From: an uncultured Phycisphaerales bacterium
GTDB lineage: Bacteria; Planctomycetota; Phycisphaerae; Tepidisphaerales; Tepidisphaeraceae
Assembly (NCBI GenBank): GCA_963758525.1
Contig: CAVWVQ010000003.1
Span: 3,936,001 to 4,000,000, forward strand
DNA: 64,000 bases
Direction of reading: 5' to 3'
Every line of letters starts with the position of its first letter. Positions within the stretch are counted from its first letter, which is position 1. A program made the translations under genes and the position numbers. Below the pieces are notes generated by a model, which was given only the letters and a program-made list of their open reading frames with translations, had not been told where the DNA came from and ran no database searches. Shown one piece after another: positions 40,058 through 57,732 of this stretch.

Positions 40058-40140
40058 TGCTCCGACTGAGAAGAATCGAACGTATAAAATTGATTTGCTG
40101 CGCACTCCTGTCAGAATAGCCAGGAGTACGTGAGGGGCCA

Positions 40141-40888
40141 TATGGACAGCAATCCGGTCGATGCGTTCCCGCCCGAAGTCATCGAGAAACTCGGCTTCTA
40201 CGTCTACCGCCTCATCGACCCGCGCAATGGGGAGACTTTCTACGTTGGGAAGGGAAAGGCCAACCGCGTCTTTCAGCACGCGCGGGCCGCCGTGAAACTT
40301 CTCGAAGAAGGCGACGAGACGACAAACAAGATCAAACAAATCCGCGAAATTCAGCAAGCCGGGCTTCAAGTGGGGCACGTCATCCATCGTCACGGTATGG
40401 ACGAGGCCACCGCCTTCCAGGTCGAAGCCGCTCTGATGGACGCCTACCCCGGCATCCATAATGATGCCAGTGGGATCGGTAGCGGGGACTACGGCTGCAT
40501 GCATGCTATCGAGGTCATCACCAAATATCGCGCCGACCCCGCCGAATTCCGCCACAAGGTGATACTAATTACCGTTAATCGAAGTCTTGAGGTCAAATCC
40601 CTTTACGACGCGACCCGCTTCGCCTGGAAGATCAGCCAGTCGAAGGCGAAGCAAGCCGAGGTGATTCTGCCCGTGGTGAAAGGGATCATTAAGGGCGCCT
40701 TCGTTGCAACAGAATGGTTGCCCGCGACGACCGAGAATTTTCCCGGCTGGCCGAACCATCCGGATCGCGTTGCCTTCAACGGACACGAAGCGCCTGAACC
40801 GATCGTAAGCCTTTACCTAAACAAACGCGTGCCGGAGAAATATCGTCAACAAGGCGCAGCGAATCCGATTCGCTATGCATTTCCATAA
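40141..40888 (+). CDS. LEM-3-like GIY-YIG domain nuclease
   Basis: FYVYRLIDPRNGETFYVGKGKANRVFQH, AFQVEAAL, C-terminal NPIRY; GAGGGG RBS. Confidence 0.85.
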
Positions 40889-41451: not shown

Positions 41452-43158
41452 TGTTAAGCCGCAGTAGAAATGTCCGGTTTTTAACCGCAATAGAACTGTC
41501 ACGTTCGGCTGGCCCTGCCGAAGGCCGGCGGGCGCTGCTTCGCCGTAGGCCTGGTCACCTTGTTATTCACGATCGGCTTCTTCACGCGCACCGGTTTCGG
41601 CTGCTCGGGCAGCTCGCGGTAGGCCAGTCGTGTTCGAACGTCCTGTAGTTGAATCGTGCCGTCCCAGGTGCCGCACCGTCACGCGCCGTCCCGCCAGTTG
41701 CAGGCGTTCGTGGGCCCGGTCGATCTGGAACCAGCGGCTCTCGTAACGCACGCACCAGTCCTGGCCCACCACCCGTTCCTCTGCAAAACACAGCACCTCC
41801 CTCAACTTCACGCCCCGCGCCAGTCGTCGGTGCGCGTCGGCCCTGCGCCGCGCCGCTACGACCTGCCTCGCGTTCATCTTCGGCAGGAAGTCCTCTTTCA
41901 GGAACGTGTTCCCCGCCTCCATCGTGCTGATGCCCGCGAGCCGCATTTCTTTGACCAGCCGATCCTGCATCGTGCGGTTTTGTCGCTCGACGCGCCCTTT
42001 GGCCTGCGGCGAGTGCGCCTTGATCAGCGTCACCCCCAGTTCCTTCATCGCCCGCCCGAACTGCGTGAGGGGCACTTCGCCCGCCAGTTCCTCCGCCGTC
42101 GTCACCGGGCGGTCCGACCGGTAGATGCTGTCGCGGTCGACGTACACGCTCCGCGGCACACCGTACAACTCGATCCATTCCCCGAACGACTCGAAGGCCG
42201 CCACGGTCGTCTCCTCCTTGAAGAACTTCGCGTGGGTCCGGCTGGTGGCGTCGTCCACCAAGTCCATCAGTACGCACTTGGGACCCCGGCCCTCGAACCA
42301 GTCGTGCGGCGACCCGTCCATCTGCACCATTTCGCCGAAGCACGCCCGACGTTCGCGGCGGCTGCGGTGCTTGCGCCCCGGCGCAGGCGCGTCCACACGC
42401 CCGCCTCCTTCAGAAGCCGCGTCAGCGTGTCCGCGCTAACCGCCAGGCCGTCCTCGGCCAGCTTCTCGCTGGCATGCGTCGGCCCGAAATCCGCGTAACG
42501 CGCCTGGTGGCGATTGACGATCTGCTGGCGTTTGGCCTCATCGATTCGGCGGTTCGACGCCCGGCCACGCGACCGATGTACCAGGCCCGCGTCCTTTTCC
42601 GCCAGGAACCGCTTGTGGATCCGCCGCGCCTGTCGCTCGGACAAGTTCAGCCATTGCGCCGCCCGAACCAGCGTGATCTCCCCTCGCTTCACCCGACCAA
42701 AAACCTCCAGCCGCAGCCGCTCGTTGCGGCTCATGCTCAATGCTTTCATCCGAGCCGTTTACAGCCAAACCGAGCGCGTCGCCTCAACCCGGCCTGCACG
42801 CGACCCAGCAAGGCCGCCGTCAGCTTGACCTTGAGCCGCCCGGGGAACGAGGATGTCTCTGCCGCCTGGAGGATAGGGCTCCGCAGGAGTGCGACCCGAG
42901 CGCCAGTCGGTTGCCATACGGCAATGGATCGGGCGGACCTGCTCCGCCCGATCCCGCCGCATCCAACCTGCCGGCGGCACCAAAGCGCAAAACTCCGGGG
43001 TTTGGGGCAGAGCCCCAAGAAGCGTTTCAGTCTTCTTCCTTACCTCTTCCATCCACGTGACAAAGCAAGCAACCGACAAAATAGCGCATCCACTGCGAAC
43101 CGGGAAACCGGACATTTCTATTGCGGCTAAGGGGTGACATTTCTATTGCGGCACAACA
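41452..43158 (-). mobile_element. Complete IS1202-family (former ISNCY) insertion sequence, 1707 bp, with a 16-bp target-site duplication
   Basis: TGT...ACA ends, each with two CCGCARTAGAAMTGTC subterminal repeats; AGAGCGCAATGACGAC duplicated at 41436-41451 and 43159-43174. Confidence 0.92.
41499..42749 (-). CDS. IS1202/ISNCY-family DDE transposase (two indels, near 42390 and 41665)
   Basis: HTH (LNLSERQARR), YADFGPT, QMDGSPHDWFEGR, VYVDRDSIY, SPQAKGRVER. Confidence 0.9.
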
Positions 43159-43545: not shown

Positions 43546-44724
43546 TTACGAGCCGACCTTCGCCATCGTAGATACAGGTTCAATGGTGGCGCGCATGCCG
43601 TCCGCTCCCGCGAAGACACCGTCGGCAATTCGCCGCAAGTCGTAGGTGCCAACTTCGCATGTCACCGTGAGCAGCGTGTCATTTAGCGTGCATACGAAGT
43701 TTCCCTCGGCATAGCTCCCATAATCGCCTTCACGTTGAAGAATAAGGTATGAAGTACAGAGACCGCTGGGGAAGCCGGAGAGGGCGATTATGAAACCATC
43801 TTTGCGCTCGTACCGAGTCGCTAAACAATCCAAAAAACCGTTCGTATAGTTGGCGATAACACTTGCAAAATAGGCCAGAGTATCCACGGCGTCCGCCGCA
43901 AACGGTTGTTCTTGGGCTGATGTTACGATAACCACGCCCGCTCGCTCGACTGTGCAGGGGCGCTTAATGTGCGAGAAGACAAACTTTTCGGGAGGGCTAT
44001 CGCACGGCCTCTCCTGTTCTGACGGCTTGAGAAGTTGCCGGCAATTGTCGACGCTCTGCTCGAAGCATGACTTCGAGGCAAAACAATAAGCGGCAAGTTC
44101 GTTGACGTCAGTTGTTCCGATTCTCTTAGGGAGTCCTTCCGTGATTCCTGACGCGTAATTGAGCTGAAGAGTCCCGCTCTTGCAGCCGAATTCGTTTAGC
44201 CTGCGAAACCCATTGAGGAACCACACCTGAATCGAGAACTGGCCCGACTCAACGCCCAAAATCAGCTGAATGCTCTCCTGAAGCTTAGCGATGATCGGTT
44301 TCAGTCCGTCCGCAAAGAGGGTTTCCATATCCACATCGGCGAGCGCGCGCACATTATCGCACTTGCGTGCGTTCAGAATATCGAACAACGACCGGACCAA
44401 GCGATATGACTCCGATCGGCGGCGAATCTCGCGATTACAGGCATTGAGGCGATCCGTCATTTCGACCGCCTCGGCGAGGGCAAGTGCGGGGGACGCGACC
44501 TGTTGCGCCACTAGGTAAAGCGCGAGGAACAAATGGACGGTCCCGAGAACGATCAGACACCAACCAGCTCCGGCGCTCGGCGGGGTGGCGGTCCACTTGT
44601 TGACCAGAACTGCTTCAAGGATTGGGAACAGCGCGGTACTCAGCACCAGCAGCACGACGTTCAAGGCTTTAGAGACAACGAGCTGTTGTTTCAGATGGTC
44701 CCAATAGATTGTCTGTTTACGCAT
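43546..44724 (-). CDS. Hypothetical protein: two N-terminal TM helices, coiled coil, possibly GAF-like soluble domain
   Basis: 392-aa ORF with non-host codon usage; hydrophobic helices near residues 22-41 and 55-73; GVVIVTS..PF..D...L..FASVI pattern. Confidence 0.65.
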   Translation of the reverse strand: MRKQTIYWDHLKQQLVVSKALNVVLLVLSTALFPILEAVLVNKWTATPPSAGAGWCLIVLGTVHLFLALYLVAQQVASPALALAEAVEMTDRLNACNREIRRRSESYRLVRSLFDILNARKCDNVRALADVDMETLFADGLKPIIAKLQESIQLILGVESGQFSIQVWFLNGFRRLNEFGCKSGTLQLNYASGITEGLPKRIGTTDVNELAAYCFASKSCFEQSVDNCRQLLKPSEQERPCDSPPEKFVFSHIKRPCTVERAGVVIVTSAQEQPFAADAVDTLAYFASVIANYTNGFLDCLATRYERKDGFIIALSGFPSGLCTSYLILQREGDYGSYAEGNFVCTLNDTLLTVTCEVGTYDLRRIADGVFAGADGMRATIEPVSTMAKVGS

Positions 44725-45058: not shown

Positions 45059-46405
45059 TTACGGGGTGGGAATAGCCGAAAGTTCCTTTCGAATTTGTTC
45101 GCCCGCTGCCTGAATTCCATTCGTGATGTCGATGTAGATGATTCCCTTCAGGTCTGACGGAATTTCGGTTTTCCCCTTGTGAAGAAGAATCACCCGACCA
45201 GAACGCCGACCAAGCATCCCATAAAAATAACCGAGTTCGAAGATAACGTTCTGGCGCGTGCGCTCGATTCGCGCCTTGTCACTCGTGCCGCCAACGTCGT
45301 CCGGCGTCACCAGCACGAAGGCCACGTCGATGTCTGAGGCGTATTCCTCGAATTTTTCGATAATGGTGCGCCCTGCGCTCGCCTGCTGATCAAGAATGAT
45401 CGGCTCCGGCATCTTCAAGACGTTCTGGAGATAATCCTTCAACCCGAGTTTTGCTGCTGGGTCGTGACCATGAACGATAAACGAACGGATTTTCTGAACC
45501 ATCAGAATTTTCCCTTTCTTTCGATATTGTAATGGCAGGATGGCCGGGGGATCAACATGCGCCAAACATGCTTGCCACCGCAGATCCGTTCTCAGCGCCA
45601 ACAGTACTGATGTCGCGGCTGTCTCCACGATTTCGAGGATGCCCGCTGCACGACACCTTTCGCGAATGACCTTGTACGAGAGGTCGTCACCGGCCGAAGG
45701 CACTGGGTGCGGCGATTCCAAGTACACCAAATCTGTCACGACCCCTGCGTCCAGTTCGTTAACAAAACTGGCAAAATATGACTCATTAATTACGGAATGC
45801 ATCCGGTTGCGCAGAACCGGATTCCGAGAACGAGGGACAAGCAATGGTAAGACATACGGGACGATGAACGCCTTGTCATTCAATCGTTCCGGGACCGCCG
45901 CCCACCGTTTTTCAAGGTCTTTCGGGATCGCGATCTTAACGCCGTCGAGTAGGCTGGCAACTCCCCGCCCCTTCTCAAGTCTTGCAATCCAATCTTTCTT
46001 GATGTCGTTAGTTGCGCTCGCTCGCCGTGTACGAAATGGCGGTATGTGCCCTCCCCGAAAACCTTTGTACGCGCGCGATTGATTCGACCCGCTGCGGTAT
46101 TGACTCAGTTTCTCATAACGAAATTCCTCCAGGCTACTACCGCTCCCCACGAGCCGGATCAAGCCCATCTCGTACACCGCCTGAAGTTCGTCCAGTATCA
46201 TTCGGCAATCTGCCGATTCGAGATAGGATGCGGCGGGCACAAGAACTTCCTCCGCAGCGAGAACAGCGAAGCGCGTGGCGAGTCTACACTCTCGAACGAG
46301 CGCCCCGCCGATCTGATCTGCCGACTTCATCTCTAAGAAATGGAGATCGAAGAAGTGAAGAAACAGTCGCGGAATCAGCCGCATTGGGGCGTTTCCGAGC
46401 GTCAT
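45059..46405 (-). CDS. Unknown ~300-aa domain fused to a Cap12/PycTIR-type TIR domain
   Basis: C-terminal FIVHGHD, GRTIIEKFE, VLVTPDD, RQNVIFELGYF (catalytic Glu), PSDLKGI. Confidence 0.88.
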   Translation of the reverse strand: MTLGNAPMRLIPRLFLHFFDLHFLEMKSADQIGGALVRECRLATRFAVLAAEEVLVPAASYLESADCRMILDELQAVYEMGLIRLVGSGSSLEEFRYEKLSQYRSGSNQSRAYKGFRGGHIPPFRTRRASATNDIKKDWIARLEKGRGVASLLDGVKIAIPKDLEKRWAAVPERLNDKAFIVPYVLPLLVPRSRNPVLRNRMHSVINESYFASFVNELDAGVVTDLVYLESPHPVPSAGDDLSYKVIRERCRAAGILEIVETAATSVLLALRTDLRWQACLAHVDPPAILPLQYRKKGKILMVQKIRSFIVHGHDPAAKLGLKDYLQNVLKMPEPIILDQQASAGRTIIEKFEEYASDIDVAFVLVTPDDVGGTSDKARIERTRQNVIFELGYFYGMLGRRSGRVILLHKGKTEIPSDLKGIIYIDITNGIQAAGEQIRKELSAIPTP

Positions 46406-46408
46406 GAT

Positions 46409-46918
46409 CTAACTAAAAAGAAGCAGTTGCGCGTCCTCGTGCTTACAAAACGCTCGAAAATCTCCGACCAACTTAGAGAACTCTTGGCAAAGCGGAATTG
46501 CTGCCCACGCCTGAAGTTCGTCCTCAAACGCTTCAGGCATGTCCTGGTAGAGATAAATACGCTTTGACTGAGCGAATGCGACAGCGATCTCCGCAAAGGT
46601 ATTGGGACCAACGTAATTCCTGATATCGTATTTGTCGCAATTAATGGCGACAACAGCAAATGTGGACGGGTGTCGAATTTTGCGCAAGTATTGATAGGAG
46701 ACTTTCCGCTTGAACAGCCGAAACTCTTCCGGCGTCAGAGAATGCTTGATGTGATCTTCCGCAACCGGGACGACTGTTGGGATACCTGAACGCTGGAGGA
46801 TTTTCTGAATGCGCAGCATTTCGCCGTATGCGCTCATGCTGCCGCAGAGCACAACACGCCACTGCATCCGCTGGCGGCCGATCCTGTTCTGCGGTTTAGT
46901 CGTTTTTGAATCGCCCAT
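46409..46918 (-). CDS. Nucleoside 2-deoxyribosyltransferase-like protein 2 (start 46918 or 46867)
   Basis: VVLCGSM...KI...AVVAIN.DK....YVGPNTFAEIAVAFAQSKRIYL, i.e. the G-x-x-T-x-x-E-x-x-x-A...K pattern. Confidence 0.7.
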   Translation of the reverse strand: MGDSKTTKPQNRIGRQRMQWRVVLCGSMSAYGEMLRIQKILQRSGIPTVVPVAEDHIKHSLTPEEFRLFKRKVSYQYLRKIRHPSTFAVVAINCDKYDIRNYVGPNTFAEIAVAFAQSKRIYLYQDMPEAFEDELQAWAAIPLCQEFSKLVGDFRAFCKHEDAQLLLFS

Positions 46919-47396
46919 GCAGCAAATCTTCCTCGGCCATTGAGTATTCGTCCGATCTTGCCTCAAAAATTCGCGTCAGTTTAACGGTGCCATCTGTAAT
47001 CTGACGCGCCAGGGCTTCAGCAGATACGATGCACGAATCAGGTACGGCGACCGGTAGGTCTGCTGGCTGATTCTCGAAAAAAATTGGCCGACCACACTGA
47101 ATGATGCGACCAACCTCGTAACACGTCGTTCGACCGATGTAACGTTCCGGCGAGACGACATACACCAAGTCGGAGCGGAGAATTCGGTGCAACGCAATCG
47201 TCTGGACCATCGGGTCATCTGCATGCGGAGGGTCAGACCGAAATCGAACGAAATCGATTCCCGGCTCGATAATTTCATCGCCCTGCGGCGAAGTGATCTC
47301 CATTGCGGCGTCGCGAAACACCTCTCGTGCGCGGCTGACTTGCGCGAGGTGTTGCTTAAAGCTCCCGATAATTGCAATTGTCTTGGGCCTTGGCAT
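46896..47396 (-). CDS. Nucleoside 2-deoxyribosyltransferase-like protein 1
   Basis: IAIIGSF...RILRSDLVYVVSP..YIGRTTCYEVG....RPIFF; GGAAG RBS. Confidence 0.7.
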   Translation of the reverse strand: MPRPKTIAIIGSFKQHLAQVSRAREVFRDAAMEITSPQGDEIIEPGIDFVRFRSDPPHADDPMVQTIALHRILRSDLVYVVSPERYIGRTTCYEVGRIIQCGRPIFFENQPADLPVAVPDSCIVSAEALARQITDGTVKLTRIFEARSDEYSMAEEDLLHGRFKND

Positions 47397-48634
47397 ATCA
47401 CTTCCATCCAAACGGAGCCAGATTTTACTGTGGCTCGGGCCACAGGGCCAAATTGGGGCGTACATGTACTGTACACTGCGGGTCCGCCCGTCAAATGATC
47501 CGTCTGCCGCCACGTCACTGAAATTGAGACATGGTCGGACCGGCGTCCTGCGGCATGATCGCACCCAATCGTCCAGTGGGGTTCGCATCTACGTCATACA
47601 ATCGCTGGCGTTCCTCCATTTCCTCCGCGACGTCGGTCTTTCGATCTTCAAAAGCCGGAAAAGCGACATCACTTGGACATCACTGATTTCTCGGTGTCGC
47701 CCTTTGCCCGCTTCCTGGTCCGCGCGGTGTGAACTTCAAGCCTGGGCAGCCCGTGGCTAAAGTCGCGTTCAGAGACCGACGACCGGTTCGACAACCTCAC
47801 CGCGGGCCTGTTCGACAAACTCACTGCAGGAATTCGCTCGGCTCCGTGCTGACGCGATGTTGATATTCCCCGGCGATCCCCTTTCAGTTCGCGCAGCTCG
47901 ACACGACCTCATTCACGGACCGTTGAGCGTCGCCAATCGCTCGAAGCCATCCGCGGAGGTCTTTGCGAGTTGTCCATTGCAGCCCGTGGTAAAAGTTCCC
48001 GGCATGCCGGGAATGCTTACAGCTTCGGGCCGGGCTCTACGTTGTCGGGACTTGCCCGTCCCGGCATGACTGCTGCGCCTCGACGCCTTGATCCCGGCCC
48101 GAATCCGCGGCGCACCGGCGCGCGGGACATTTACCAAGGGCTGCTGGGCCCCTCGTCAATTCCCCAGAGAAACAGGCAGTCCCAGCGTGCATTGAGCCGC
48201 TCGATGGCGGCCATCAGGACCACGCCGCCGTAGCCGAGGAAGAAAATGTGGTCGGCGATCGCTGCGAGATCCAGATGCCGTGAAGAAGCAATCCGAAGAG
48301 ACGGTTGCCACAGATGAAGATGATGAACAGATAAATCCGGGGAAACGCGCGATCGCGTTCACTTCATACTTCTCAAACCGACTCTGAATTTATCTGTGTC
48401 CATCTGACTTTGCATCTGTGGCAACATTCTTTGATTTGAGCATTCCTTGTCTGCAGTCGCTCGCTTCGTTCTGCATCATGATCGACTTTTCACTCAGGTC
48501 CACGCCCCGCAAGCGAGGCGGCTAAAGGAGACGGACTGCTCCGCAGCCAACGAGGCATAATCAGCGTCCGACCTGCCTGCGGCACTGGATTTTTTCGATC
48601 GATTGCAAGACCATCGGTGACACGGAGGTTCACA

Positions 48635-49189
48635 ATGCCCTTCTACAACTTTTACGGGGAATTTGGCGACGGAGATGATGACGGCAACAGCGAGTCAACA
48701 TCGCCCGGCTCATTTGAATATAAGGGTGCAACTGCCCAATTCAACGCTGACGATCTGAAGGGCGTCCCCGCCGTTGCCCTGGGAATGGTCTTGGCCGCTG
48801 GCATCGCAGAGATGCGGGTTCTCTACGACGGCGGAAGCGATGAGGGGTTCGCCCATGCCGACGACATGTGGATCAATGGTGACCGAAAAGTCGTCGATGA
48901 GATATGTGAGATGCTGGCTTCGCCGGCGAACGTTGATGCGATACGAGCCGCCGCAACCGAACCAGACGGTTCCCAATGGGGCGACGCGATCGCGCATTAC
49001 CGCAAGAAGGAACCTCGCAAGGTCGTCGCCGACGCCCTCGATGAGCTGGCCCACGAGATCGCATCGCAACTGCTCGGCTCCGGTTATGGCACGGGCGAGT
49101 ACGAGTTGTACGGCGCCGTGATGGTTGTCTTCGAAACCGGCGAGATGATCGACGACGCCAACGCGGAACGGCCCCTCGATCGGATGTGA
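48635..49189 (+). CDS. Acidic protein, DUF6878-like
   Basis: GGAGG RBS; GIAEMRVLYDGGSDEG motif; 4 nt upstream of the DUF6915-like gene. Confidence 0.6.
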   Translation: MPFYNFYGEFGDGDDDGNSESTSPGSFEYKGATAQFNADDLKGVPAVALGMVLAAGIAEMRVLYDGGSDEGFAHADDMWINGDRKVVDEICEMLASPANVDAIRAAATEPDGSQWGDAIAHYRKKEPRKVVADALDELAHEIASQLLGSGYGTGEYELYGAVMVVFETGEMIDDANAERPLDRM

Positions 49190-49193
49190 CTAC

Positions 49194-49631
49194 ATGGCGC
49201 ATCCGTGGCATCATGCCGTTCGCTCCGCCAAGCTCTTTGGGGGCTCTCCCGAAGATTATCTTGCGGTCCACAACTGGTTCGACGAATCGAAGGCGTTTGT
49301 GCCCGACATTCGGCATCGCGCACTACGGCATCATTCCGAGGGGATTTTCCTGTGCGAACGATTGCTGGGCATCACTCTGAAAAATTCCGCCGGTCGTGAG
49401 GTTCCGGTACGCCAGATCGGTGAACAACACGTCAAGGACGATCTCGGCTGGGTCCCAACCGCAAAAGATTGGCTCGTGCATCTGCGCGTTGAGCCCTGGA
49501 TGAGCCGAACACCGTTCAGGCCGTCGAGCGAAGAGGAGGATCAGGCTGCAAAGGATGCGGCAGCCATTCACGACGTGCGTTCGCAGCCAGGCGGCGTTGT
49601 CGTCCCGACTGAGGAAACTTCACGGAAATGA
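49194..49631 (+). CDS. DUF6915-like His-rich protein
   Basis: HPWHH..SAK.FGG..EDY..VH.WFD.SK....RHRALRHH..GIF..E...VPVR.IGEQHV..D.G..P...DWL. Confidence 0.8.
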   Translation: MAHPWHHAVRSAKLFGGSPEDYLAVHNWFDESKAFVPDIRHRALRHHSEGIFLCERLLGITLKNSAGREVPVRQIGEQHVKDDLGWVPTAKDWLVHLRVEPWMSRTPFRPSSEEEDQAAKDAAAIHDVRSQPGGVVVPTEETSRK

Positions 49632-49657
49632 CGTCGCGTGCCTGCGCGACGAATTCC

Positions 49658-49842
49658 GGAGACTATTGCCACAAAAGACACAAAGAGTGCAAAAGGGAAA
49701 AGCGGGAAAGTCTCGCTTTCTTCTTTTTTTGTGTTTTTTGAGTTGCTTCGTGGCAATTTCTCCTCGCGTGGCTGCTACCAAACAGAAAGAATGCAACCGC
49801 AGATGAACGCAAATGAACGCAGATCGAATGAAATCACTGAGA
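49658..49842 (+). repeat. 185-bp direct repeat, copy 1
   Basis: Near-identical to 50759-50943; contains a TTGCCAC...GTGGCAA hairpin and GATGAACGCA repeats. Confidence 0.92.
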
Positions 49843-50248
49843 CGACAATTTGATATACCGCACCCCTGGAAATCGGTGACGTTTCGCGTGGCAAGCGTCG
49901 CTCCGACGGAACGTGCAATCGCGGCGATCTGGGCATCCATCTGGCTGATCGGTCGGCCCGCGTGACGGCGGTCAGTGGCGATGGTGGCAAATAGGCGATG
50001 GCCGCCGCGCTGTCGAAGTCTAGAATCCGCCCGGCAAAGTCCTGTGCGAGCATGCTGTCCAATGCGACCTTAAACTGCTGACGCCTTTGACCGAGTGGAA
50101 GAATTTCGATGCCGTATCGCAGTTCCGCTTCCGTGATGGCGCTGAGGAAGCAATCCGCCGGGGACCGCGCTGCGAGCCACGCTTCCACTTTCGCCTCGGG
50201 GGCAGGCTTCATGAGTTCTGAGATGACATTGGTGTCGAGCAGGATCAT
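49843..50248 (-). pseudogene. vapC: VapC PIN-domain toxin, frameshifted and 3'-truncated
   Basis: MILLDTNVISE, ITEAEL; the second frame has DAQIAAIA...ATRNVTDF; ends at the repeat without the usual NPW. Confidence 0.8.
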
Positions 50249-50505
50249 TGACCAATGTCCAGCGGCTGGGGCATCGGGTCCCTGATCGGTTCGGCCAATT
50301 CAATGCCGCCCAGCGCACCAAAGCGGCTTCGAATGGATGCCGCAAGAGTCATGTTTGCGTTTCCGCGTGGCGGGGCGCTTTCCAAGCCCAAACCCGCCTT
50401 CATCGCTTCGACTGCAACTTGATCGACAGGGCGGTGTTGCTCGTCGGCTTTTCTCCGAAGCGCGGCGTCAAGGTCGGGCGGGATATCCCGAAGCGTCAAT
50501 GTCAT
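50245..50505 (-). CDS. FitA/VapB-like ribbon-helix-helix antitoxin
   Basis: MTLTLRDIPPDLDAALRRKA...LAASIRSRFGALGGIEL; ATGA overlap with vapC. Confidence 0.8.
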   Translation of the reverse strand: MTLTLRDIPPDLDAALRRKADEQHRPVDQVAVEAMKAGLGLESAPPRGNANMTLAASIRSRFGALGGIELAEPIRDPMPQPLDIGQ

Positions 50506-52333: not shown

Positions 52334-55300
52334 TTGATTGACACGAAGCTGGAAGAGGTTCGCCGACGACTGCTGGACTTGAGCCGGAACAACCGGCTGC
52401 TGAACCATCGCGCGACGGGGCAGCGGACGTTGCAGATCGTCGATGAGCTGCCGGGGGAAATCTATCGCCGGCTGGTGGAGGAGGGGCGGACGCTGCAGTT
52501 TCTGTCGATGGAAGAGGCGCCGCCGGAAGCGAAGGGCGTTCTTGCGGAGAGCGCCCACGCGGCCGCCGACGCGCGCTCTTTCCCCTCCCCTGGTACGCCG
52601 GGGGAGGGTCAGGGTGGGGGCCGGATGGGAGGAGGTCAATCGGATATCAATGCTCCATTGGGAGCGGCGCCGCCCCCACCCCAGCCCTCCCCCGGCGTAC
52701 CAGGGGAGGGGGAAAATCGGCGGATGGAGGAAGGTGTATCGGATAACGATCCGCCTTTGGGAGCGACGCCGCCCCCACCCCAGCCCTCCCCCGGGGTACC
52801 AGGGGAGGGGGAAAATCGGCGGATGGAGGAAGGTGTATCGGATAACGATCCGCCTTTGGGAGCGGCGCCGCCCCCACCCCGGCCCTCCCTTGGGGTACCA
52901 GGGGAGGGGGAAGAGCCTGAGCTGGCGGCGCTGCCGCTGGCGCCTGTGGCGGATGCGGCGCCGGCGGAGAGGCATCGGGACAACAAGCTGCAGACTGCGC
53001 TCGAAGGGGAGAAGCTGCAGGCGCGGCTGGTCAATCTCGCGCGGGAAGCCAACAGCGCGATTCAGGAGCAAGGATGCAACATCCTGTATCTGACGTTTGG
53101 CGTGGTCGAATGGCGCGATGCCGAGTCGGCAAACGAAACGTCGCGCGCGCCGGTGATTTTTGTTCCTGTCGAGTTGAAGCGGAAGAGCGTCAACGCCCGC
53201 TACACGCTGCAGGCGTTTGATGACGACGTGGTGGGCAATCCGTCGCTGGTGGAACTGTGCCAGAATCAGTTCAACTTTGCGCTGCCGGCGTTTGACGCGG
53301 AGAAGGACGAAGCCGAGACGTATCTCAAAAACGTTGAGGAGGCCGTGGCGCACATGCCGGGGTGGAAGTTCACCTCGGAGATACACCTGGGTCTGTTCAG
53401 CTTTTCCAAGCTGCTGATGTATCGCGATCTGGACCCGCGCAATTGGCCGGCCGCGAATCATCTGGCGGACCACGCGCTGATTCAGAGCCTGACGCTCGGC
53501 ACCGCGCCGGAAGCGGGGGACGGCAACGGAATTCCCGATCCGCATCAGCTCGATGAGATGGTTGACCCCGCCGACTGCTTTCAGATCGTTGACGCGGATT
53601 CGAGCCAGCAGTCGGCAATTCTCGGAGCCAAACGCGGGCTGAGCATGGTGATCGACGGGCCGCCGGGAACCGGCAAGTCGCAGACGATCACCAACATCAT
53701 CGCCGAGTCGCTGGCGGCGGGGCAGACGGTTTTGTTCGTCTCGGAGAAGTCGGCGGCGCTGGAGGTGGTGAAACGACGGCTCACCGAAGCGGGGCTTGGC
53801 GATTTCGTGCTGGAGCTGCACAGCCGCCAGGCGAGCAAGCGCGCGGTTCTGGAGGAAATCAACCGCGTTCTGGAACGCGACGCGACGGCTCGACAAGTCA
53901 CGCTCGCGCCGGCGCAGGAGCTTCGAGCGACCCGCGACCGGCTCAACGCATATCACCGCGACCTGCACACGCCGCTGGGGGCGCTGGCGATTTCGCCGTT
54001 TCAAGCGATGTCGGCCGCGATCGCGCTGGTGAACGAGCCTGAGGCTCATTGCGATATTCCCGATGTGATGGGGTGGTCGGCTCAGCAGCTGACCGAGGCG
54101 GATCAAAAGCTGGCTGGTCTGGATCGATGCCTGGCGCGCGTGGGTGACGAGTCGGCGCATCCCTGGCGCGGCGTCTGGCTGCCATCCGCGGGATTGCGGG
54201 AAAAGCAGCGCATTGGGACAGCGTGCGAAGCGCTGGTGCGCGCGATCAAGGGAACACTCGAAGCGGGAAGCGCCGTGGCCTCGATGCTCGCGGTCAGCGC
54301 CCCTCGCACGCGCCTGGAATGCGAGCAGCAATGCGCCGCTGCCGGGGTGCTCGTCGCCGCGCCAGCGTCCGTCGCGGACGTTGTTATGCCGGGCGTCATT
54401 CCCGTCTCCGCGGCCGCCAGCACTACAGGCGTGGTCCCCAATCCCACGGCGTGGGACGCTCCCAACCCCGCCCTGACGGAATGGCTGCGAATCGGGGCGC
54501 GTCGTCAGCAACTGAAAAATCTCTGGCAGACTTTCTTCCTTCCCTCGGCCGAGGATCAGGAGTGGAGCGATCTGCTCAATCGCAGGCAAAAGCAGCAAGG
54601 GTCTCTTCTGAGGTTCTTCAGTTGGTCTTGGTACGCCGACGGGAAGCGGCTGAAGGCGTTCCGATTGTCAGCCGCGCCGCCCCCACCCCGACCCTCCCCC
54701 GGAGTACCAGGGGAGGGGGAAAGAGAGACATCGTCGGCCCCACCCCGGCCTTCCACTGGGGTGCCAGGGGAGAGGGAAAGAGCGGCACCCACGATGAGCG
54801 AGCTGGAGCTGTTGTCGGCGGTAATTGAAAGTCGAAGGCTGCGGAAAGAGCTTGAGAAGTGGGCCGGTGGATTCGCCCCGATGTTCGGCACGGAATGGCA
54901 TGGAATTGACAGTGATTGGCCATCATTGGAGCGATTTGCAGCTAGCGCGCTGGCCGTCCGAAACTTGCTTCTCACCCAGCGCGTTGATCCTGCCGCCGCG
55001 CGGCGATGGCTCGACGCTCCCGACCGCGGTCCGCTTGCCGCGTCGGGCAACTCCGCGCAGTCGGCGTTGGATCATCTGGCCGACTGCTGGCGCGAATGGC
55101 TCGCATCCATCGGCAGCGATGAGCAGCGCTGGCTCAAGACGGAATTCGCCTCAGCCGAGCTGGCGCCGATCGCGCATCGCCTGGCGGAACTTCCCGCGCA
55201 GATCGAGCGGCTCGACGAGTGGATCGACCTGCGGCGCTGCGTCACCGAATGCTCCAACACTTCGCTGCGCTCATATATCGAGTGGGCGCTGTTCGGCGAC

Positions 55301-57732
55301 GCGAGCGTCGCACGGGGAAAATTGCCGGCGGTCTTCCGGCGGCCTTTTTACCGGCTGTGGGTCGAGGAGGCTTTTGCGCAGCGCGAGAGCCTGCGCGGCT
55401 TTCGCGGGCAGGATCACGAATCGGTCATCGCGAAATTCCGCGAACTCGATCGGCAGTGGATTCAACTGACGCGCGAGCGGCTGTCGGAGAAACTCGCGGC
55501 GCGGCGGCAGGGGGTGCAGCAGCCGGCGCATCGCCTCTCGAAGCTGGGGATGCTGCAGGCGGAAATCCGCAAGAAGTCTCGTCACATGCCGTTGCGAAAG
55601 CTGCTGGAAGCGGCGGGCGAAGTGGTGCAGTCGATCAAGCCGTGCTTCATGATGAGTCCATTGTCCGTGGCCCAGTATCTGGCGCCGGGCGGGCTCGCGT
55701 TTGATCTGGTGGTTTTTGACGAGGCCAGCCAGGTGGAGCCGGCCGACGCCTACGGCGCAATCGCGCGGGGGCGGCAGTTGCTGCTGGTGGGAGATGAGCG
55801 GCAGCTTCCGCCGACCAACTTCTTTGGCGCAGCGATCCGGAGCAGCAGGCGACGGAGGATGCGGACGTTCATTCGACGGATTTGGAAAGCATCCTGTCGC
55901 TGGGGATCGTGCGGCTGCCGCATCGCTGCGGGTTGCGCTGGCACTATCGAAGCCGGCACAGCAGCCTGATCGAATTTTCCAATCACGAGTTTTACGACGA
56001 TCGTTTGCGGGTGTTTCCCAGCCCGCACACCGATTGCTCGGAACTGGGCTTGGCGTTTCGCTACGTTGAGAATTCGGTTTATCTCCGCGGCGCGGGCCGA
56101 TTTAATCCCGTGGAGGCGAAAACCGTGGCTGAAGCGGTCATGCGTCACGCGCTGGAAACTCCCGAGCAGTCGCTGGGCGTCGGCACGCTCAATCAGCCGC
56201 AGCAGCGGGCGATCGAAGATGAGATCGAGCGGCTGCGACGAACGCATCCCGATGAACGTGTCGAGCAGTTCTTCGCCCGGCATGCGGCGGGCGATCCGTT
56301 CTTTGTCAAGAATCTGGAGAACATCCAGGGGGACGAGCGCGACGTCATCTTCCTCAGCATCGGCTTCGGTAAAGACGCCAACGGCCGGCTCCACGTTTCG
56401 TTCGGCGCACTCAACAGCGAAGGCGGTTGGCCGCGGCTCAATGTATTGGTGACGCGGGCGCGGCGGCGATGCGTTGTCTTCAGCTCAGTGCGCGCCGATG
56501 ACATCGACCTGGGCGCAACACAGGCGCGCGGCGTGGTCGCGTTGAAGGAATATCTCTATGCCGCCGAGCAGGGACGGCTCAAGGAGGCGTTGGTTCCCGG
56601 CGGAGACCACGACTCGCAGTTTGAGGCATCGGTCTGCGGGGCGCTGCGCGAGAAGGGGTGGGAAGTGCATGCCCAGGTGGGGTGCGCCGGATTCGCCATC
56701 GATCTTGCTGTGGTCGATCCGCGATCGCCGGGGCGATATCTGCTGGGGATCGAATGCGATGGGGCGACCTATCACAGCTCGCCGACCGCGCGCGATCGCG
56801 ATCGTCTCCGCCAGGCGGTGCTGGAGAGCCTGGGATGGACGATTCAACGCGTCTGGTCGACGGATTGGTTTCACCGGCCGCAGATGACGCTGCAGGCGGT
56901 GCTCGCGCATCTGGACGAGTTGAAGAAGGCGCCGCTCGAAACGAAGAAGCCCGCTCCGCCGGATGAACGGGAGGTTTCGCAGTCATCGGGTCTTTCCGGA
57001 GACGGTGGTCCTGTCCCCTTTGTGGTGCAGGCTTCCAGCCTGCCGCTTAAAAGCAGTCTGGAAGCCTGCACCACAACAGAAGGCCTCACCCCAACCGTCT
57101 CCCGGCGTACGACTCGACCAGGCTCGCCGCAGTCCGGGAGAGGGGGCAAGAGTGCCGACGCCCAGTTGCCATCTGGGGTGGTGCAATACCTTCACGCTCG
57201 CGACGACAAGGCGCGCGGCTCGTCCGCGTCGCTGCTGGCGATGAAGCCCGATCAAGTGGCGACGATACTGAGCGAGATCGTGAAGACGGAGGGGCCGATC
57301 CACGTTGAAGAGGCGCTGCACGCCTGCACCGAGATGTTCGGCGCCAAGGCCTCGGCCCGGCCGCGCGAGGCGTTTGAGCGAGGTTTGGCCGCCGCGGTGA
57401 ATGCCGGCGGGATCATTCGTCGGGAGGATTTTCTCTGGAGCGCGGGGCAGGGCGATGCGGTGGTGCGTCACCGCGGCGGCGATTGTCCGGTGACCGATGC
57501 CGAGCGAATCTGCCCGGAGGAGTTCGATGCGGCGGTGCGATTGGTGTTGCAGCAGCAGTTCGGATTGCCGTTCGATGCTTTGATTGAAGCCACGGCGCGA
57601 CTGATGGGCTTCTCGCGGACCGGAACAAAACTCAAATCAGCAATTGAACAGTCGCTTGTTCGGCTGAGCATGAAGAAAGCGATTGAACTCGATCATGCGC
57701 GATTTGTGACGCTCGCGCGCGACGCATCGTAA
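52334..57732 (+). CDS. DUF4011-SF1 helicase-Vsr-like nuclease-DUF3320 protein (HheA-like; indel near 55830-55880)
   Basis: LLDLSRNNRLLN, DADSSQ, GPPGTGKSQTI, FVSEKSAAL, FDEASQ, GDERQLPP, HYRSR, NIQGDERD, IECDGATYH, RDRLRQ, WSTDW. Confidence 0.9.

Follow-up and report, generated by a model that had tools for sequence, protein, structure and literature searches.

The window analysed here, a 64,000-nucleotide stretch of an uncultured Phycisphaerales bacterium (contig CAVWVQ010000003.1, positions 3,936,001 to 4,000,000), carries a minus-strand operon of three genes at 45059-47396 (Table 1). Two small genes, the second of which encodes a protein with the fold of nucleoside 2'-deoxyribosyltransferases (NDTs), are followed by a gene joining an unnamed domain of about 280 residues, here called the constant domain, to a TIR domain. 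This three-gene module, a sensor-like domain with a two-enzyme NDT-fold module, is a real and conserved defence candidate, and apparently an undescribed one. All three open reading frames (ORFs) were present as first described. A preliminary description, made from the DNA letters, had reported co-oriented, tightly packed, AT-richer genes with non-host codon usage, and the measured values agreed with it. Genes 1 and 2 overlap by 23 nucleotides when the first ATG of gene 2 (46918) is used, and exactly 3 nucleotides separate the stop of gene 2 from the ATG of gene 3. The GC content of genes 1, 2 and 3 was 0.533, 0.506 and 0.537 against 0.607 for the genome, their GC content at third codon positions was 0.56-0.60 against 0.72, and their codon-adaptation percentiles were 0.5, 5.9 and 1.3 with 2466 long host ORFs as the reference. 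Each gene is present in one copy in the host genome.

The surrounding island contains a PD-T4-3 homologue, Uma2, a VapC-type PIN protein, helix-turn-helix (HTH)/transposase-like ORFs and a DUF4011 helicase-nuclease; the PD-T4-3 match marks the island as defensive. As the preliminary description had stated, no CD-NTase, nucleotide cyclase, SIR2, SLOG, reverse transcriptase (RT) or Argonaute family was found in a Pfam scan of 56 ORFs selected across the window. The sole signalling-type match among them was a DAC domain 38 kb off, beside genes for a pterin-binding enzyme and an FtsH-like protein.

Table 1. Features of the operon and of the island around it, in window positions
Feature	Position	Strand	Description
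Gene 1	47396-46896	minus	166 aa; predicted N-glycosidic-bond-cleaving enzyme A, putatively NDT/TIR-like
Gene 2	46918-46409	minus	169 aa (152 aa if the start is 46867); predicted enzyme B, NDT-fold protein
Gene 3	46405-45059	minus	448 aa
Gene 3, constant domain	45536-46381	minus	residues ~9-290, unnamed domain of alpha/beta type; putative sensor and switch for activation
Gene 3, TIR domain	45059-45499	minus	residues ~303-448, Cap12/PycTIR clade, Glu390; effector predicted to act as NADase, one among several exchangeable outputs
GIY-YIG protein	40130-40888	plus	full-length PADLOC match to PD-T4-3, E 1e-103
Transposase-like element	41563-42749	minus	split over two frames (HTH part at 42267-42749); lies between PD-T4-3 and the operon
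392-aa ORF	43546-44724	minus	downstream of gene 3, co-oriented; two hydrophobic N-terminal stretches
Two gene pairs	48617-50505	plus, then minus	190-aa unknown and DUF6915 (plus); VapC-type PIN with small upstream partner (minus)
DUF4011 - AAA helicase - REase_MTES_1575 gene	52334-57732	plus	split into overlapping frames 52334-55969 and 55882-57732

Conservation of the module and exchange of its effectors

Two independent scans recovered the arrangement, and the conserved three-gene synteny that had been proposed as a check was observed in both. The search of GTDB genomes with an alignment of gene 1 recovered 36 loci: 26 with all three genes, two with genes 1 and 2 and eight with gene 1 only. 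Contig edges cut off one of the two gene 1 and 2 loci (L006) and two of the gene-1-only loci (L007 and L013); the genomes of the six true solo loci were searched for the constant domain and gave no match. Metagenomes searched with the N-terminal domain of gene 3 gave 47 loci, of which 39 were complete, five had genes 2 and 3 and three had gene 3 alone, and all eight incomplete loci had at most 697 bases upstream. The order was 1-2-3 in 60 loci; gene 2 was flipped and convergent in four actinobacterial loci, and the order was 3-1-2 in one, so gene 2 was retained even where its strand or the order had changed. Named hosts belong to Acidobacteriota, Pseudomonadota, Actinomycetota, Thermodesulfobacteriota, Armatimonadota and Bacillota, together with one archaeal bin. 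Because it is conserved across phyla, the arrangement is not due to chance, and the three genes travel as one self-contained unit. Clustering of flanking ORFs across related loci revealed no conserved fourth gene. The system is rare and its spread patchy: none of 40 relatives had gene 1, none of 400 genomes of the phylum had gene 2, and the profile of the constant domain gave no match in 1,140 further genomes.

Two loci depart from the usual form. At L003 (5995-9336), genes 1 and 2 are followed by a Nudix gene, which could erase or trim a signal, and by a distant constant domain fused to PNP, recognised at E 1.7e-4 by a profile built without L003. The divergent 3-1-2 member (L036, 2356-6880) lies directly after a ThsB-TIR and ThsA-Macro pair.

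Residues 309-428 of gene 3 matched PF10137 (CAP12-PCTIR_TIR) at E 9e-33, and the motif RQNVIFELG supplies the catalytic-type Glu390, in line with the earlier assignment to the Cap12/PycTIR clade with an intact catalytic glutamate. The PADLOC matches of gene 3 (CBASS-effector TIR, PycTIR and PDC-S35) were confined to the TIR part, and genes 1 and 2 and the constant domain had none. No STING, SAVED or cyclic-nucleotide (cNMP)-binding domain was recognised at the sensor position of gene 3, and 81 gene 3 homologues contained no cNMP-binding Pfam domain.

The preliminary description had suggested looking for the same domain on other effectors, and such swaps were seen across 253 constant-domain sequences. 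PNP-type domains were the most frequent partners (103), followed by ExKNY nuclease-like (37), Cap12/PycTIR (36), small helical (19), SEFIR/TIR (8) and PRTase-CE (4) domains; HNH, EAD7, EAD1, caspase, DUF4365, TIR_2 and an alpha/beta-hydrolase-like domain occurred one to three times each. TIR-mediated NAD+ depletion, which had been proposed as the output, is predicted for the present operon and is a minority output (36 of 253) among the constant-domain sequences. Effectors are attached at either end of the constant domain, or it carries an EAD adaptor, and catalytic-type motifs are kept in the swapped effectors. A locus with a TIR and one with a nuclease-like domain (L001 and L037) share 67, 68 and 53% identity in gene 1, gene 2 and the constant domain, respectively. 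In the small helical type (L058, 3571-4866, and 18 similar proteins), a C-terminal domain of ~120 aa with no Pfam match follows a Gly/Gln/Asn-rich stretch, which we take to be reminiscent of amyloid signalling motifs. EAD7 or EAD1 fusions account for three of the 253 sequences; at L011 (6965-8939), a constant domain fused to EAD7 faces a PNP-EAD7 fusion encoded as its own gene on the other strand. EADs have been proposed as homotypic couplers between effectors and core components (Kaur et al. 2020, PMC7159879), and the fusion at L011 fits activation by proximity.

PADLOC was run on 112 flanking ORFs (up to four per locus) of 38 selected loci at a threshold of E<=1e-10. A match lay beside 21 of the 38 loci as a raw count, and beside 17 after removal of generic helicase, ABC and partial matches (L021, L029, L042, L065). 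The matches comprised restriction-modification systems, CBASS effectors, pAgo, DRT, PD-Lambda-5, SspH and AbiEi. These neighbours and the PD-T4-3 homologue in the window support a defence-island setting for the module. At L014 (3142-12167), the module is inserted in a BREX cluster between pglZ and brxD/brxHI.

Fold and active-site residues of the two small proteins

The reported motifs were all located in their ORFs, IIGSF and YIGRTTCYEVG in gene 1 and LCGSM and YVGPNTFAEIAVA in gene 2. The glutamate assigned to the catalytic position proved invariant in both families: G11, S12 and E94 of gene 1 are kept in 95/95 sequences, and E93 of gene 2 (152-aa numbering) in 92/92. Many further positions beyond the glutamate motif are invariant in both proteins. 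Gene 2 has an NDT-like flavodoxin-like fold, with no Pfam match to PF05014. Gene 1 gave a weak NDT signal (PF05014, E 0.006, 17.1 bits, under the gathering cut-off of 28.8), which recurred in 29 of its 95 homologues, so the NDT-like fold proposed for both proteins stands for gene 2 and is tentative for gene 1.

Canonical NDTs have two active-site aspartates, one of them six residues ahead of the glutamate. In an alignment with 6evs (E 0.21), Glu94 of gene 1 falls on the NDT glutamate, and Gly and Ala occupy the two aspartate positions; in gene 2, the position six residues ahead of the glutamate is Gly in 91/92 sequences. The preliminary description had equated the G-x-x-T-x-x-E core with the NDT motif, and this identification is refuted by the glycine that both proteins have in place of the aspartate. 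The glycine in both proteins and the loss of the second aspartate in gene 1 do not indicate canonical deoxyribosyl transfer. At the strand-1 position, assigned from motif spacing, Ala was found in 84/95 gene 1 sequences and Val in 78/79 gene 2 sequences, with no Tyr in either protein. Tyr at this position has been tied to deoxy-specific NDT/DNPH1 enzymes and Phe or Ala to TIR NADases, and base exchange by a Thoeris TIR has been demonstrated (PMC11204291); TIR, DrHyd and SLOG domains have been grouped as N-glycosidic-bond enzymes and signal generators (PMC9503650). The small proteins resemble the PF05014 enzymes (NDT, DNPH1 and MilB) in their five-stranded flavodoxin-like fold (tentative for gene 1), nucleophile-position glutamate and G-S loop after strand 1, and differ from them in the residues above; at the sequence level, the aspartates and tyrosine of a canonical NDT were not recovered.

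Relatives of both genes also occur outside the module. Three actinobacterial solo gene 1 homologues (L025, 5953-7155; L028, 5872-7152; L033, 5989-7133) accompany an NrtR-type Nudix-winged HTH protein, fused in L025 or adjacent; NrtR is presumably an ADP-ribose sensor. A Streptomyces locus (L023, 4595-6489) shows a separate arrangement of TIR and NDT only: a Cap12-type TIR fused to one or more NDT domains, with a solo gene 1 homologue following immediately downstream. Solo gene 2 homologues on phage contigs of 158 and 196 kb (L084 and L085, 3081-7311) lie in a dUTPase - HAD - gene 2 - ThyX - thymidine kinase cluster, where a role in nucleotide metabolism or as a counter-defence mimic is possible.

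Proposed mechanism and competing explanations

We favour, with a probability of about one half, abortive anti-phage signalling in which the NDT-fold pair makes a small-molecule alarm, the constant domain reads it and the effector fires. Infection would activate the gene 1 and gene 2 enzymes, which would cut the base-sugar bond of a nucleotide to yield a small nucleotide-derived signal. The constant domain would bind this signal and cluster, and clustering would switch on the attached toxic module, here a TIR domain predicted to destroy NAD+, so that the cell is killed or arrested. Both small proteins would be needed, as a heterodimer or as maker and modifier. Our best guess at the chemistry is a TIR-like reaction that relies on the glutamate alone, either transglycosylation or base exchange, with a ribo-substrate of NAD+/ADP-ribose type. 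In this scheme, the defence function, the catalysis, the existence of a diffusible signal, its binding as a ligand and the activation through oligomerisation are all inferences. It is rather less probable, and tentative, that the pair jointly makes a base-exchanged or ADP-ribosyl-nucleoside signal read by an unrecognised sensor fold that fires at least ten effector types, which would be a new second-messenger immunity class beside CBASS, Pycsar, Thoeris and Kongming. Of the interpretation given in the preliminary description, the synteny, gene 2 fold, glutamates, island and effector swaps survive; the NDT motif identity and TIR as the main output do not.

Several observations weigh against alarm signalling. 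The constant domain showed no recognisable ligand-binding fold in fold comparison, and its weak look-alikes include PIN RNases. Defence proteins of NDT fold are known as effectors and not as producers of a signal, as in retron Ec86 (10.1101/2023.08.16.553469) and in the CMP-hydrolase effector of type VIII Thoeris (10.64898/2025.12.03.692087). The neighbours of the phage gene 2 homologue (38% identity) point to deoxypyrimidine nucleotides rather than NAD+. Distance correlations between the partners are modest (Spearman 0.25-0.58), and the count of defence neighbours lacks a matched control. Several of the loci nearly duplicate one another, and an exact peptide motif was required in both scans, so the locus counts represent a single clade and are not independent observations. 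Synteny and effector swap would fit a physical guard complex, or signalling by inhibition, equally well.

A guard complex, in which the two small proteins sit on the constant domain and either restrain the effector or sense a phage protein within the complex, with no diffusible signal, has perhaps the best claim among the alternatives and is still unlikely. It would explain why both small genes are strictly inherited together with the constant domain, why reading frames overlap or abut and why many positions outside the glutamate motif are invariant, and in retron Ec86 NDT-fold proteins work within large complexes (10.1101/2023.08.16.553469). The invariant glutamate and G-S loop argue instead for kept catalysis or nucleotide binding, and effector attachment at either end and the modest distance correlations between partners also weigh against the complex. 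Inhibitory, Panoptes-like signalling, in which a constantly made molecule keeps the effector off until phage sponges or hydrolases remove it, is improbable. Guard systems of such a kind exist (PMC12657218), and on every contig of sufficient length the constant domain was accompanied by gene 2, which would be expected of a gene 3 that is toxic by itself; activating signalling predicts the same co-occurrence.

The enzymes may instead act on a (deoxy)nucleotide that comes from the phage or is perturbed by it, for example a modified pyrimidine monophosphate, and the product or leftover would activate the constant domain, in parallel with Kongming/Metis-like logic. We consider this slightly less doubtful than inhibitory signalling. 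The phage cluster would suit it; it is opposed by the missing tyrosine (by motif spacing), by the solo gene 1 contexts, which point to NAD/ADP-ribose, and by the confinement of the phage evidence to a single lineage, with no match among 50,697 annotated phages. That the constant domain is itself a divergent PIN-type RNase effector and genes 1 and 2 are nucleotide-depleting effectors, in a cassette with no sensor-signal logic, is very unlikely: its fold scores were all at background, with PIN tied with unrelated CDPS/tRNA-synthetase folds, D225 is conserved in 68%, D134 and D225 are absent from the distant L036 member, and a domain that is always fused to another toxin, and a variable one, looks more like a sensor. 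A nucleotide salvage or stress operon sitting in islands by chance would suit the frequent use of NDT and PNP folds in salvage and the lead of PNP among the fusions; we regard this as highly improbable, given that TIR, SEFIR, nuclease-like, caspase, HNH and EAD domains can take the place of PNP, that the distribution is sporadic and that the neighbours are defence genes. Summed over the readings, a defence role of some form stands far ahead of a non-defence one and, with room left for readings beyond these, is very probable.

Relation to known systems and remaining island genes

In its predicted working, the module most resembles Thoeris (types I-XI; 10.64898/2025.12.03.692087), with which it shares small TIR/NDT-superfold glutamate enzymes beside a sensor-effector protein, effector diversity and a defence-island location. 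The compared parts of that source (abstract, two of eight text parts, discussion and keyword passages) contain no mention of NDT, PNP or nucleosidase. Membership was rejected, as no ThsB-type TIR signal generator belongs to the module. The cyclic-oligonucleotide-based antiphage signalling system (CBASS; Cap12 TIR-STING, Cap17-type PNP effectors) and Pycsar (PycTIR) share the PF10137 TIR clade with Glu390 and an effector set of PNP-type ATP nucleosidase (10.1101/2023.01.24.525353), nucleases and proteases. Assignment to CBASS was rejected for want of a CD-NTase among the 56 window ORFs scanned and of a conserved fourth gene in related loci, and assignment to Pycsar on the cyclase and cNMP-binding results and the restriction of the PycTIR match to the TIR. 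The retron Ec86/Eco1 NDT-like effector and the type VIII Thoeris CMP-hydrolase effector are likewise NDT-fold, glutamate-dependent enzymes in defence; there, in the passages compared, the NDT fold is the toxic output, whereas here the NDT pair is constant and the output varies. A retron with an NDT effector was rejected, as no RT occurs in the window or is conserved beside related loci. EAD-coupled conflict systems (PMC7159879) are similar in having a constant component that either bears an effector itself or connects to one through EAD1/EAD7, with overlapping effectors; the EAD-coupled NTPase ternary system was rejected, the module having no conserved MoxR, vWA, STAND or GTPase core. PDC-S35 was the best PADLOC match of gene 3 (E 3.6e-47), covering residues 303-445 only.

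The absence of a described system of this composition, as first claimed, held for PADLOC 2.0 (2023) and for the literature searched by titles and abstract openings, a scope that leaves an earlier listing possible. The passages and one supplement file of PMC13069673 contain no match to the module, and the comparison also took in parts of 10.64898/2026.05.01.722283 and 10.64898/2026.10.19.760177. The module would be a further form of signal-and-effector immunity. Both of its candidate parts, the two-enzyme NDT-fold generator and the 280-aa domain with no clear structural relative, are unnamed, and within the literature compared the NDT-fold family is otherwise seen in defence only as effectors. 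With each new bacterial signalling defence have come a molecule and a sensor domain not seen before, and several of these defences foreshadowed immune chemistry of plants or animals; the chemistry here would be categorically new if the signal were confirmed. The system lends itself to testing through its natural effector swaps, since NADase activity of the TIR form offers a direct readout in the hunt for a signal.

Among the other island genes, the 392-aa ORF downstream of gene 3 had no significant Pfam, PADLOC or NCBIfam match and no homologue in any related locus, and is possibly a separate membrane-linked gene. The DUF4011 gene contains low-complexity proline/glycine repeats, and its split may reflect a frameshift or an assembly error.
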